DNA of 10,089 nucleotides from a virus (Duplodnaviria > Heunggongvirae > Uroviricota > Caudoviricetes). Of this stretch, positions 1 to 10,089 are shown in pieces. The stretch is taken from IMG/VR virus record IMGVR_UViG_2675903357_000009; one strand, given 5' to 3'. A model generated the notes under the pieces. The model searched no databases, was not told the DNA's origin, and was given only the letters and a program-made list of their open reading frames with translations. Numbering within the stretch: position 1 is the first letter of the stretch; every line of letters starts with the position of its first letter. The position numbers were made by a program, and so were the translations under genes.

Positions 1-72
1 GGGAAAAATATCATCAGATGGCTGCTTAAAAAAAGAACAAATGGTAGTGTCCGCTATTGCCAGTACACCTCA
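1..72 (+). mobile_element. Right end of an IS3-family (IS600-like) element; the body lies beyond the window start
   Basis: Positions 1-72 are identical to 3581-3652 (end of the internal IS copy) and are the exact reverse complement of 10018-10089. Contains the last 9 codons of transposase orfB (..EKYHQMAA, stop at 27-29) and a terminal ..CCAGTACACCTCA (IS3-type TG..CA end). Confidence 0.85.
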
Positions 73-199
73 GGGTATAAGGGGTTATGGCCACCGGACT
101 ACCAAACGGCTGCCAGCCCTCTTTCAGTTTATGTGTCAGCTTTTCCGCAAGATCTGACGGCGGCGCCGCCCTGACAACATCATAGTGTTTAAATGCCAT
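73..199 (-). pseudogene. Phage late-region hypothetical gene, 3'-truncated by the IS end at 72 (MAFKHYDVVRAAPPSDLAEKLTHKLKEGWQPFGSPVAITPYT..)
   Basis: ATG at 199-197 with GGTGGAAAG upstream. The reading frame runs into the IS terminal repeat, so the native C-terminus is missing. A diverged counterpart lies at 3662-3763 downstream of R2. Confidence 0.5.
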
Positions 200-392
200 G
201 GTTCTTTCCACCATCTGAAAAATAATTCTTTAAAATACCTGACATGTAATACAGAAAAAACACAAAACCATACCTTAAATAAAAACCTGATTATCAAGCA
301 GATATGCATGGATAAACTACAAGACGAGATATAAACCACCCTGCATTTAAATAAACAATAAACAACATCAGAAAAATAATTCTGCTCTATGG

Positions 393-419
393 TTTACATT
401 CAAAAATATCATTTATACT
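393..419 (+). promoter_or_regulatory. Candidate sigma70 promoter for the 460-795 ORF (-35 TTTACA, -10 TATACT)
   Basis: TTTACA at 393-398 and TATACT at 414-419 (15-bp spacer, so suboptimal), about 40 bp upstream of an AAGGAA Shine-Dalgarno and the ATG at 460. Confidence 0.35.
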
Positions 420-459
420 TTTCAGAACATCACCAGCAAGGCATAAACAAGGAAACTAA

Positions 460-795
460 ATGAAGTGGATTGTGATTGATACAGTTATCCAGCCATCATG
501 CGGAATATCTTTTTCAGTCATATGGAGTAAAATAAAATTAATAATCTGGTATCAATCGGATGCTTTCTTACCTCCTGAAAGTATATTTACACTGACTCAC
601 ACAGGCATCATGCTCAATAACAAAGTGCTACCTGTAACCATTTACAACGTAGTACCATTCAATAAAACATTCTGGAATTCAATCAAAAATAGCCAGGAAT
701 GCCCTACAAATACAGATAACGTATTGAATGAATGCTTTAATAACCGTTGCACTCTGCAAATATGTCCTTATGGACTAAAACAACAAAGTCCATAA
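460..795 (+). CDS. Hypothetical protein (111 aa), AT-rich moron-like ORF with a Cys-rich C-terminus, opposite in orientation to the phage late genes
   Basis: ATG at 460 preceded by AAGGAA with 5-nt spacing. A 111-codon open frame in a ~32% GC segment, where chance ORFs are rare. No recognisable family by eye. Confidence 0.5.
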
Positions 796-827
796 GGAGT
801 TTACTCACATCTGACAAAATCAATATA

Positions 828-1055
828 AACAGCCCCTCCGGAGAGGGGCTGGAGAGTGGCGCTATGTGCCATTGCATGGTGCCGGGTGCCTCCCGGTGAA
901 TTCAGTACCAGCACCTGAATCCGCGATTATCCCATATACCTACTCGCTGATTGCCCCTCCGCACAGGGGGATTCACCATGCCAGTTTCTTTTAACAAACT
1001 CCCCGCAAACCAGACAACAGTCAACCGCCTGAATTGTGAAGTATTTAAAAATTTC
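828..1055. repeat. Conserved ~225-bp element R, copy 1 (near-identical to 3841-4065)
   Basis: Direct comparison with 3841-4065 shows only a few mismatches, while the flanks on both sides are unrelated. Begins with the hairpin AGCCCCTC-CGGA-GAGGGGCT. No convincing ORF on either strand. Confidence 0.8.
831..850 (-). terminator. Intrinsic-terminator-like hairpin at the downstream end of R (for minus-strand transcription)
   Basis: Perfect 8-bp stem with 4-nt loop at 831-850, followed on the minus strand by the U-rich tract GUUUAUAUUGAUUUUG (811-830). Confidence 0.5.
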
Positions 1056-1075
1056 TCCCGCTAACTGATACCCGG

Positions 1076-1162
1076 CTAACAGTCTGGCGTTTTCTTTTTC
1101 AGCAACGGGAAAGCAACAACCACCACACCCGCCACCAGCACACCGTCAGCCAGCACTGACAT
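1076..1162 (-). CDS. Candidate small hydrophobic peptide (28 aa, MSVLADGVLVAGVVVVAFPLLKKKTPDC); possible GTG start at 1207
   Basis: Short ORF with one transmembrane-like stretch and a lysine-rich C-terminus. Weak Shine-Dalgarno. Seen only by manual translation. Confidence 0.2.
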   Translation of the reverse strand: MSVLADGVLVAGVVVVAFPLLKKKTPDC

Positions 1163-1242
1163 TATCCGGCTGCTGCAATGCCATTCACAAAAACAGTAAG
1201 CAATCACTTTTTACCGTAACAGGTGATAATCCAGATATGTAT

Positions 1243-1569
1243 CTACCCCAGATGAGTAATCCGAAGTTCATCCATACCACAGGTCCTGGCTATTCTGTTG
1301 TACTCCTGAACAAGAGCAAATAATTCTGAATTAGCAACCATGAACTCATCGCAAACCCTCTGTATAGCATCACTATTCAGAATAATAACGTCTCTTCCCG
1401 AAAGACGATCAGGAGTACAGAACAAAACTGTCAAACGGCTGAAGGCCTTTGCTCGTGCTGCATTGACTATATCAATACGCTGCCTAAGGATGAAACACCC
1501 CGACGCCTCATCAATATTCACTCTACCCACACCATATGAATGATAAATATTTAATGCTGAAAAAACCAT
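1243..1569 (-). CDS. Hypothetical protein (108 aa from the ATG at 1569; the ORF track extends it to a TTG at 1596)
   Basis: Longest ORF in the copy-1-specific segment 1056-1706, co-oriented with the late genes. No clear Shine-Dalgarno and no recognisable family. Confidence 0.3.
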   Translation of the reverse strand: MVFSALNIYHSYGVGRVNIDEASGCFILRQRIDIVNAARAKAFSRLTVLFCTPDRLSGRDVIILNSDAIQRVCDEFMVANSELFALVQEYNRIARTCGMDELRITHLG

Positions 1570-1706
1570 TAGACCGTATAACAAACACTCAATCAATACT
1601 TAACAGAACTTTTATTTTTGACAAACATAAAATATTTTCAACAATATCCTGAGCCAGGTATATTTCAGTATAAGGCTCTGCCGGAAGGAATCTGGAAGAA
1701 TGAATA

Positions 1707-8350: not shown

Positions 8351-8632
8351 TTATCCAGTGACGGTAGTCGAGGCTAAGGGCTTTTTTAACCTCGCATCCG
8401 CGCCTGCGGTAACACTGAATGAGCCATTCGGCCTGTTCTTCAGTGCATGGGGGATGCTGGTACCAATCAGATTTAAATGCGTGAGAGCGCCGCCCGTGCC
8501 TGCTGGCAAAGACGGCTGAATTATCAGAATTGTGTAGTCTGGAAGGCAGTGGCTGACAATAGCGCCATTCTCAACGCGCACAGTATAGAGGCCATCTTCA
8601 CTAAAAATTTCACGTAATTCTTCGATTTTCAT
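8351..8632 (-). CDS. Hypothetical phage protein (93 aa, MKIEELREIFSEDGLYTVRVENGAIV..)
   Basis: ATG at 8632 with GGAAGGA 8 nt upstream. First gene after a candidate promoter. Same frame as the DUF968 gene, separated by a TAA. Confidence 0.6.
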   Translation of the reverse strand: MKIEELREIFSEDGLYTVRVENGAIVSHCLPDYTILIIQPSLPAGTGGALTHLNLIGTSIPHALKNRPNGSFSVTAGADARLKKPLASTTVTG

Positions 8633-8714
8633 CAACAGAATCCTTCCAGATAAATAGCACTCCCCTGTTCGGGGTCCATCCCTCTTCTCCCTGCGCGCTA
8701 CTTAAGTATTTTTG

Positions 8715-8744
8715 ATTCTATTCCGGCACCATCTAAAACTTCAA
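8715..8744 (-). promoter_or_regulatory. Candidate sigma70 promoter for the operon 8632 to Q (-35 TTGAAG, -10 TAGAAT)
   Basis: On the minus strand: TTGAAG (8744-8739), 18-bp spacer, TAGAAT (8720-8715). Lies between the hok terminator and the next gene. Confidence 0.35.
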
Positions 8745-8766
8745 ACGCGTTGAAAATAAAAACAAA

Positions 8767-8784
8767 AACCCGCCGAAGCGGGTT
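8767..8784 (-). terminator. Intrinsic terminator downstream of hok
   Basis: Hairpin AACCCGC-CGAA-GCGGGTT followed on the minus strand by UUUUUGUUUUUAUUUU. Confidence 0.7.
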
Positions 8785-8852
8785 AAGTGTGGGTGCATTG
8801 AGGATGCCTGACCCATCAGAGGTGGCGAGGGATTTCTCCCCCGCCTGGTCTC

Positions 8853-9008
8853 TTACTCCTCAGGTTCGTAAGCTGTGAAGACAGCGACCTCCGTCTGGCC
8901 GGTTCGAATTCGTACCTCGCAGAGGTCTTTCCTCGTTACCAGTGCCGTCACTATGACGGTTAAACAGATGACGATCAGGGCGATTAACATCGCCTTTTGC
9001 TGCTTCAT
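8853..9008 (-). CDS. hokD: Hok/Gef-family type I toxin (HokD/RelF-like, 51 aa)
   Basis: MKQQKAMLIALIVICLTVIVTALVTRKDLCEVRIRTGQTEVAVFTAYEPEE: transmembrane helix plus the conserved Hok C-terminal motif. ATG at 9008 with AAGGAG upstream. Confidence 0.85.
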   Translation of the reverse strand: MKQQKAMLIALIVICLTVIVTALVTRKDLCEVRIRTGQTEVAVFTAYEPEE

Positions 9009-9299
9009 AGCCTGCTTCTCCTTGCCTTTCGGCACGTAAGAGGCTAACCTAGATTTGCCGTTCATAGATTGAGCCTCAGATTAATGTTAAGCGTCTTGCC
9101 GGACGCGTAATGTTAACTGGGGCTTTTCTCTATCTGCCTTTTGGTGTTCATGCCTGAGACAGATAGCCTCAAGCACCCGCTGCAATTCTACTTAACTCTC
9201 CTTTTCCCGCAAACCGTTTTTATCCCCAGCGGCAAATCGAATACACCACCAGCGCCACCGCCATCGCAATTCCTACCGTTGTTAATGCTTCAGGCCAGG

Positions 9300-9644
9300 T
9301 CATCGTAAAATATCCTCCACGCTTATCAGTCCGTTCCGCTCCAGATAACTCATCGCCTTATCCGGTAATTTGCAGTCTGGCTTCGCTTTCCTCAGTTGCC
9401 AGGTTAACTGCTTTACCAGCATGGTTAACTCATCGACCAGACGCTGATATCCCACTGGTTTGTATTCATGCAATTTACCGGCTGGCTCTGCTGCCAGCGA
9501 TACCAGTGCGATTTCCAGAACAGCAATATCCATCTTATATGTGCGGATGATGTCATGGTCGATTGTGCCCGGTATGCACAGTCTCTGTGCTTCAATAGTC
9601 TCCTCTGCGTGAGCTATTAACTGCTCTCTGGTAAAAGTCGTCAT
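9300..9644 (-). CDS. Hypothetical phage protein (114 aa); N-terminal region paralogous to the upstream 55-aa ORF
   Basis: ATG at 9644 overlaps the upstream stop (ATGA). The stop overlaps a further 27-codon hydrophobic ORF. Confidence 0.6.
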
Positions 9645-9808
9645 GCCGTAGCCCCTTCTTGATATTTTTCAAACCAGAACACAACCGGCTCTGCTTCCAG
9701 CGATGCCAGCGCAATCCGTGCCAGTTCCATTTGTTCACCACGGGTAAGCCCGTTTTCAAGCGGGTTTTTAATGAACAATTCAATACGTTCTTTGGTAATA
9801 GTGGTCAT
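9641..9808 (-). CDS. Hypothetical small phage protein (55 aa, [41 protein letters not shown]..)
   Basis: ATG at 9808 with GGAG 7 nt upstream. Below the ORF-track length cut-off. Shares MTT.T.E and IAL.SL.AEP motifs with the 114-aa protein. Confidence 0.55.
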
Positions 9809-9818
9809 GTGTTACTCC

Positions 9819-10017
9819 TTAACCCGCAGTGCTTTCAACTGATGAGGGGAACAAAATCTTTTCATCAAACCCTGCATTCATATCATGAACAGCAACACAC
9901 CAATCCATCGACGAACGATTATCAAGAGCCTCCATGATTTCATCCATGCGGCGTAGGTCATACAGGTAAATGCTTTTATCGCCAATGGTGTAAAAGCCAA
10001 TTTTTTTCGGTGATGGA
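9819..10017 (-). pseudogene. Hypothetical phage gene, 5'-truncated by the IS end at 10018
   Basis: The frame is open from the IS junction to TAA at 9821-9819. The apparent ATG at 10049 lies inside the IS terminal sequence. Confidence 0.5.
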
Positions 10018-10089
10018 TGAGGTGTACTGGCAATAGCGGACACTACCATTTGTTCTTTTTTTAAGCAGCCATCTGATGATATTTTTCCC
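10018..10089 (-). mobile_element. Right end of an IS3-family (IS600-like) element in inverted orientation; the body lies beyond the window end
   Basis: Exact reverse complement of positions 1-72, carrying the orfB 3' end on the minus strand. Confidence 0.85.

Follow-up and report, generated by a model that had tools for sequence, protein, structure and literature searches.

The proper point of comparison for phage remnants that are amplifiable and flanked by the insertion sequence (IS) IS600 is the stx region of Shigella dysenteriae type 1, a defective lambdoid late region with IS600 both inside it and at its sides, and its amplification and deletion are said to proceed by recombination between direct IS600 copies. 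The title of a study on this IS600-flanked region, as cited in PMC7819885, reports its spontaneous tandem amplification and deletion (McDonough & Butterton 1999, Mol Microbiol 34:1058). We analysed the IMG/VR record IMGVR_UViG_2675903357_000009, a stretch of 10,089 nucleotides attributed to a virus of the Caudoviricetes (the whole of which is hereafter called the window), in which three stretches of IS600 accompany two lambdoid late modules. The original prediction, made from the sequence alone, read the window as a segment bounded by inverted IS ends, akin to the amplifiable toxin-phage remnants of Shigella, in which homologous recombination could invert the whole 9.9-kb block or delete or amplify positions 73-2513. 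Our comparisons point instead to a window that is most likely an entire contig or scaffold from a short-read draft assembly of Shigella sonnei, in which two separate, real loci were strung together; the invertible block between IS ends is thus probably no true unit, and its parts are ordinary.

The first and last 72 nucleotides (nt) of the window are exact reverse complements with 100% identity in a repeat scan, a match that is impossible by chance within 10 kb. IS600 positions were numbered from the full copy in plasmid pSS_046 of S. sonnei Ss046 (locus L002, 275-1538; 1264 bp from TGAGG to CCTCA). The alignment assigns both window ends to IS600 nt 1193-1264, which includes the right terminal inverted repeat (IRR) at the orfB-proximal end, with the left stub (1-72) on the + strand of an element that runs leftward past the window and the right stub (10018-10089) inverted, on the − strand of an element that runs rightward past it. 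Both stubs end in ...CCTCA / TGAGG... and abut the window interior, which bears out the reading of orfB-proximal IS ends that face inward, though the 72-nt length of this terminal repeat is set by the window ends and not by the IS600 elements. The same sequence recurs at 3581-3652, as a direct repeat of 1-72 and inverted relative to 10018-10089, at the end of an internal copy on the + strand. The internal copy had been placed at 2514-3652 in direct orientation with the left one; the orientation stands, and the boundary has to be moved to 2515-3652, which corresponds to nt 127-1264 of the 1264 nt of IS600, in its consensus sequence. The copy is thus 5'-truncated, with 126 nt gone and with neither the left terminal inverted repeat (IRL) nor the start of orfA, while its OrfB with the rve domain is intact by Pfam. 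The stretch 2515-3652 is 100% identical to copies annotated as "IS3-like element IS600" in S. sonnei plasmids. All 1138 nt of the internal copy and both 72-nt ends are 100% identical to annotated IS600, and with the TG...CA termini this places all three stretches in IS600, although the internal copy does not qualify as a complete element with both terminal inverted repeats and orfA-orfB. The IS600 of S. sonnei chromosomes and pINV has the same identity, the same TG...CA termini and orfA/orfB with the rve DDE domain, and makes a 3-bp duplication at a simple insertion in one prophage (prophage B, below); the window differs from it in the loss of nt 1-126 from the internal copy and in the outer copies, which are 72-nt stubs within the window.

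The genomic loci that contain the two parts of the window were retrieved by a look-up of two junction open reading frames (ORFs), a 62-amino-acid (aa) fusion of a DUF1737 fragment with IS600 and a 76-aa ORF that starts in the right-hand IS600 end. S. sonnei genomes were returned for both, and the exact 62-aa fusion product was found in S. sonnei records only. Positions 1-2513 are 100% identical to the locus of one prophage, prophage A, in S. sonnei CP049169, CP049175 and CP019689 (loci L003-L005) and differ by one mismatch from S. sonnei Ss046 (CP000038), whereas positions 2515-10089 are 99.99% identical to the locus of a second prophage, prophage B, in the S. sonnei loci L009, L011 and L014. 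The order in prophage A is IS21, an 85-aa ORF, RusA (124 aa), an intact antiterminator Q (Q_A, 284 aa), transfer RNAs (tRNAs), DUF3927, iraM, the truncated DUF1737 gene, a full IS600 and a 203-aa ORF, continuing to Dam, a resolvase, truncated yecE, yecN, cmoA and cmoB; RusA_A, IS21 and tail-fibre genes lie to one side of the locus, yecE-cmoAB to the other. The order in prophage B is ompW, DUF4014, IS1, DUF977, a full IS600 and the 76-aa ORF, continuing to hok, DUF968, RusA, the antiterminator Q_B, a methylase, tRNAs, a second full IS600, nanS-p (617 aa) and a holin, with nanS-p and the holin flanking the locus on one side and DUF977 and ompW on the other. Locus A, the late region of one defective lambdoid prophage, and locus B, a second such prophage, lie in different chromosomal neighbourhoods (yecE-cmoAB versus ompW) in all complete genomes seen. 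Each half of the window thus shares its sequence and gene order with one of these prophages. In contrast to the window, the complete genomes all keep these halves apart, with an uninterrupted Q_A in locus A and, in locus B, a full-length internal IS600 that leads on to nanS-p and the holin. The 9.9-kb block is therefore not borne out as a physical unit: its left 2.5 kb and right 7.6 kb occupy different chromosomal contexts and are joined in the window only.

All three IS600 copies are full 1264-bp elements in complete S. sonnei genomes (left outer copy at L003 10143-11406, right outer copy at L009 8769-10032), so that full IS copies do continue beyond both window ends, as the original prediction had proposed to check. 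In the complete genomes the internal IS600 arose by simple insertion, with duplication of the 3-bp target TCC, and the corresponding empty site, gctaTCCttcc, is present in S. sonnei CP032523 and CP060117 (L010 16640-16655; L023). Within S. sonnei this copy is an insertion polymorphism, present with the TCC duplication in eight loci and with the site empty in two genomes. The window retains one copy of the duplication, as GGA at 3653-3655, in the prophage B DNA beside the insertion site (3653-3838, − strand).

The join at 2513/2514/2515 is the only place at which the two halves meet, and it was not found outside the window. A 32-mer over the join (2499-2530) matched the window only in a probe census of the retrieved loci, in which Q_A runs intact across the position of 2514 in all eight loci that reach it, and the internal IS600 adjoins the nanS-p side by its IRL end in eight loci of eight. 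A 200-bp probe over the join was spanned in none of 5,426 complete E. coli genomes, junction patterns, whether exact or N-tolerant, had no match in viral, genome and metagenome contig collections, and the junction-specific 61-aa ORF was not on record in a protein look-up. For the truncated Q ORF, the only contigs on record were 2.4 kb long and stopped within Q, and the short-read contigs L015-L022 break within the same shared Q stretch as the join.

Both edges of the join fall at differences between repeat copies. On the left, 2171-2513 of Q_A and 6094-6436 of Q_B match exactly over 343 nt, and the base after 2513 is the first difference between Q_A (C) and Q_B (T) beyond this repeat. On the right, the IS600 of the window begins at nt 127, one base past nt 126. 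Of the 20 sampled copies that extend over nt 126, 13 have C there and 7 have T, and no other site is commonly polymorphic, the remaining variable ones being minority variants. The base between the two edges, an orphan A at 2514 (2514-2514, no strand assigned), is C in Q_A, T in Q_B and C or T at IS600 nt 126, and matches none of the parents in alignments to all three; alignment to the parental sequences also revealed no microhomology at the join. In the complete genomes, the copy at this site carries T126 together with a private single-nucleotide polymorphism (SNP; T at nt 980 in three genomes, A at nt 551 in one), and at the sites of these private SNPs the IS600 segment of the window has the consensus base. 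The chance that a real breakpoint would fall at both ambiguous positions is roughly 1e-4, from a Q SNP density of about 5% and 1-7 variable sites in the 1264 nt of IS600 (0.1-0.6%). Breakpoints at the ends of maximal exact repeats, a junction absent from finished genomes and a base that belongs to neither parent are together the marks of an assembly chimera.

The manner in which an assembler might have made this join can be sketched as follows. Where a de Bruijn assembly meets a multicopy repeat, its contigs stop after k-1 nt, which would give symmetric 72-nt IS600 stubs if k were 73, and each window end does hold exactly 72 nt of IS600. A scaffolder could then have linked the contig with the late region of prophage A to that of prophage B through Q_A and Q_B, which share about 417 nt with two mismatches in the same orientation, by false or negative-gap links. 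Gap closing may next have extended both inner edges by consensus up to the first ambiguous base, namely the Q_A/Q_B SNP at 2514 and the C/T at IS600 nt 126, perhaps leaving one placeholder base at 2514. Breakpoints at both ambiguous positions are what consensus extension that halts at the first ambiguous base would give by construction. More generally, inverted IS ends with an internal direct copy in a draft contig call for caution, as they can stem from contig ends at multicopy IS and from scaffolding over paralogous phage genes.

Several points count against an assembly origin of the join. A plain de Bruijn contig would not run through 1138 nt of an IS with many copies, so this reading has to assume scaffolding and gap filling as well. 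The join is judged indirectly, through comparison with other genomes. The census of IS600 polymorphism comprises 20 copies near the two loci, from about 14 genomes, and is not genome-wide. Prophages A and B were never seen within one complete genome record, their separation being read from 10-kb flanks in different strains. Finally, S. sonnei genomes are prone to rearrangement, as seen in L025, L011 and L014, and a real, strain-specific junction may be conceived.

The alternative that fares best takes the join as real, the product of an illegitimate deletion or fusion in one S. sonnei strain that connected the middle of Q_A to nt 127 of the prophage B IS600 with one untemplated base, leaving inverted full IS600 copies on either side of a 9.9-kb segment that contains two Q-late modules. 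We regard this as unlikely. It gains from the true IS-associated structural variation at these loci (L025, L011 and L014, and the presence or absence of the internal IS600), from the orientations of the two halves, which suit a simple deletion if A lies upstream of B in the same direction, and from the existence of truncated IS600 copies elsewhere, as in S. dysenteriae Sd1617, where the IS600 orfA that lies upstream of stx is reported to be truncated (PMC7819885). Against it stand both breakpoints, each exactly at the first base that distinguishes the repeat copies, a coincidence of about 5% times 0.1-0.6% by rough chance, as well as the orphan base without microhomology, the absence of the junction from the complete genomes, draft contigs and metagenomes searched, and an IS600 segment with consensus rather than copy-specific bases. 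Were the Q_A'::A::IS600(nt 127) junction nevertheless real in one S. sonnei lineage, for which we see rather little likelihood, it would make a compact 9.9-kb element, with an antiterminator, tRNAs and a small RNA in each of its two late modules, in which IS600 recombination could flip the block or could delete or amplify the 2.4-kb module that carries iraM. A true join would be of modest interest, as one more IS600-mediated rearrangement in a species known for them. Two homologous routes to the join were rejected. Recombination between two IS600 copies does not account for it, given that the Q_A side is without IS600 in any genome and that the IS is truncated at the join, and recombination between Q_A and Q_B would yield a hybrid Q and not a Q-IS600 junction.

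A further alternative goes beyond the reality of the join and holds the window to be a functional IS-bounded unit that inverts via its outer copies and deletes or amplifies 73-2513 via the left and internal copies, in the manner of the S. dysenteriae 1 stx region; this we consider very improbable. Its outer copies are indeed full-length IS600, inverted relative to the window, and the left and internal copies, as arranged in the window, share 1138 nt of direct homology. Furthermore, one complete genome is a recombinant between exactly the two outer copies. In S. sonnei CP045932.1 (L025, 2487061-2507291), a clean recombinant between the prophage A IS600 and the right-hand prophage B IS600, positions 1-10032 of the locus correspond to the flank of locus A from cmoB to the 203-aa ORF together with the whole IS600, and positions 8769-20231 to IS600 and prophage B. 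The resulting order, from cmoB to the 203-aa ORF, IS600, and the 76-aa ORF into prophage B, combines the IRL flank of the A copy and the IRR flank of the B copy around one IS600. The two IS600 copies that bound the window thus recombine in nature, but the product is an exchange of chromosomal flanks and not a flip of the 9.9-kb block. Further changes of context to the left of prophage B are present in L011 and L014. At least one finished S. sonnei genome therefore records recombination between two particular IS600 copies of two prophage remnants, which fits the established IS-driven rearrangement of Shigella and adds little to it. This is well-known, ordinary biology of Shigella, where the many IS600 copies in prophage remnants serve as portable homology for recombination on the scale of the chromosome.

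The functional unit requires the join at 2514 to be real, and no local isomer, whether with 73-2513 deleted or amplified or with 3653-10017 inverted, was found among about 25 B loci and 13 A loci of complete genomes. The expectation that the IS copies act as recombination substrates is realized for the outer copies in CP045932.1, and the predicted inversion, deletion and amplification isomers did not appear in these loci. Nor is a toxin or another selectable cargo evident: tblastn of the window with Stx (Shiga toxin) queries gave noise only, and Pfam and PHROG scans found no toxin domain among the window ORFs besides hok. The window resembles the S. dysenteriae 1 stx region in that IS600 copies both interrupt and flank the late region of a defective lambdoid prophage. 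It differs in having no stx and in its species and chromosomal site, its direct IS600 repeats exist only across the doubtful join and not in complete genomes, and amplification or IS-to-IS deletion variants are missing from the complete-genome loci surveyed. The defining features of the analogue are therefore lacking here, and the proposed likeness to amplifiable toxin-phage remnants reduces to a generic one.

Inverted IS600 ends bound the window as they would a composite transposon in which two IS600 copies mobilise the 9.9-kb interior together, yet this is scarcely credible and was rejected, as neither outer copy has a target-site duplication, none surrounds the unit, the interior was never met as a unit in a second context, and the inward ends are both IRR with the outer ends in unrelated prophage DNA. 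The duplications that the original prediction had suggested looking for are absent at both outer copies, where the flanks are ccc / cta on the left (L003) and ttt / tcc on the right (L009), cta and ttt being the outer and ccc and tcc the inner flanks. Such an absence is expected if these copies have already taken part in rearrangements. In L009 (6612-10032), the genes from DUF977 to DUF4014 to the left of the right-hand IS600 read away from the IS, whereas in the intact E. coli ST131 prophage (L001 13358-15872) they run in the same direction as the side of the 76-aa ORF. Their orientation suggests an older IS600-mediated inversion inside prophage B, which would be consistent with the lack of a target duplication at the right-hand IS600.

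As for the two S. sonnei loci that the assembly reading invokes, alignment shows their late modules to be diverged mosaic paralogues from two different prophages. Between modules A and B, the C-terminal part of Q differs by two mismatches in 417 nt, the region downstream of Q is 96% identical, the tRNA region 87.7% identical with indels (two tRNAs versus three) and the STnc100 region 94-96% identical. A recent tandem duplication is excluded, the modules being mosaic (87.7-99.5% identity) and identical to two distinct prophages, in keeping with what had been proposed from the sequence alone. The intact E. coli ST131 prophage (for instance NZ_CP093011.1 457454-467009), which along with PPompW-type phages is among the closest known systems, covers 85% of the window at 95% identity and has an A-type late segment (window 70-1998 against L001 4001-5932, 98.8% identity) directly downstream of a B-like methylase-Q-RusA-DUF968-hokD module. 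It differs from the window in the absence of IS600, in a single Q and a single tRNA set, and in an extra 1.8-kb segment with a helix-turn-helix (HTH) gene.

The phage parts of the window are standard lambdoid Q-late and nin-region modules, as identified by the Pfam families Antiterm, RusA, DUF968 and DUF1737, the tRNAs, and synteny with E. coli and Stx-phage records, and they show the layout of a lambdoid Q-late region, in which RusA/NinG-type genes precede Q and phage tRNAs, a moron slot and a nanS-p/lysis region come after it. All phage genes lie on the − strand and are transcribed from right to left in window coordinates. In the order of transcription, the right part comprises early-region ORFs, hok/sok, DUF968, RusA, Q (273 aa), a 65-aa ORF, the DNA methylase, three tRNAs, STnc100 and the truncated IS600, and the left part, after IS600, the C-terminal 150 codons of the second Q, two tRNAs, a 117-aa ORF, DUF3927, STnc100, an iraM/PmrD-like gene on the + strand and the DUF1737 fragment.

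The prophage B part begins with three small lambdoid early-region ORFs of 114, 55 and 76 aa (9300-10049, − strand), the 76-aa ORF beginning within the IS600 end. The sok antitoxin RNA (9003-9178, − strand; RF01794, 112 bits) overlaps the hok/mok-type toxin ORF (8853-9065, − strand; phrog_251, PF01848). At 8544/8545, about 250 bp are absent in the window and in most S. sonnei B loci and present in CP032523 and CP060117 (L010 11505-11756), where the stretch carries a Rem-family ORF (PF27490). The DUF968/HNH protein (7217-8275, − strand) and the RusA resolvase (6836-7216, − strand) were assigned by Pfam and are followed by the intact, 273-aa Q_B (6018-6839, − strand; PF03589, 1.6e-53), the N6/N4 DNA methyltransferase (4387-5445, − strand; PF01555, 7.9e-42), three phage tRNA genes (Arg-UCU, Arg-UCG and CAU; 4097-4346, − strand) and a small RNA, STnc100 (3831-4020, − strand; Rfam RF02076, 124 bits). 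STnc100 occurs once per late module, directly downstream of the tRNA/moron slot, its prophage A copy (821-1010, − strand) scoring 132 bits against RF02076, the gathering score being 47.

In the prophage A part, the C-terminal fragment of Q_A (2062-2513, − strand; from Pfam and alignments) is followed by two phage tRNA genes (Arg-UCU and one with a CAU anticodon, tRNA-Ile by E. coli annotation; 1707-1959, − strand) and by the 117-aa ORF (1243-1596, − strand; phrog_2873, without a Pfam match), which lies between the tRNAs and the lysis region, in a position that we take to be the stx slot of Stx phages. This ORF lies in a patch of lower GC between the phage tRNAs and the small DUF3927 ORF (1076-1207, − strand), whose PF13064 match at L003 9008-9139 was carried over through the 100% alignment. 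The iraM/PmrD-like gene (460-795, + strand; PF11183, phrog_4407) is a cargo gene of prophage A that also occurs in the E. coli ST131 prophage, where it is annotated as "anti-adapter protein IraM". It is read in the direction opposite to every phage gene, from the stretch of the window with the highest AT content (GC 0.33), and has the look of a typical moron. The DUF1737 fragment (26-214, − strand; PF08410, 1.5e-15), the N-terminus of a nanS-p-type esterase gene, is cut by IS600 at 72/73 and has an IS-derived tail. The DUF1737 gene is a truncated pseudogene in the ST131 prophage too, and part of its decay is thus older than the IS600 insertion.

Near prophage A in L003, an IS21 element adjoins the 85-aa ORF upstream of RusA_A, and a further IS600 (1121-3160) is split at nt 506-514 by a 768-bp gap with a 9-bp duplicated overlap, which looks like an IS1 insertion. 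A draft S. sonnei contig (L007, LYEF01000207.1) encodes at 942-1365 a 141-aa Q in which window position 2191 is joined to sequence that aligns at 6416, and this is either an internal deletion of Q or another collapse over the Q_A/Q_B repeat.

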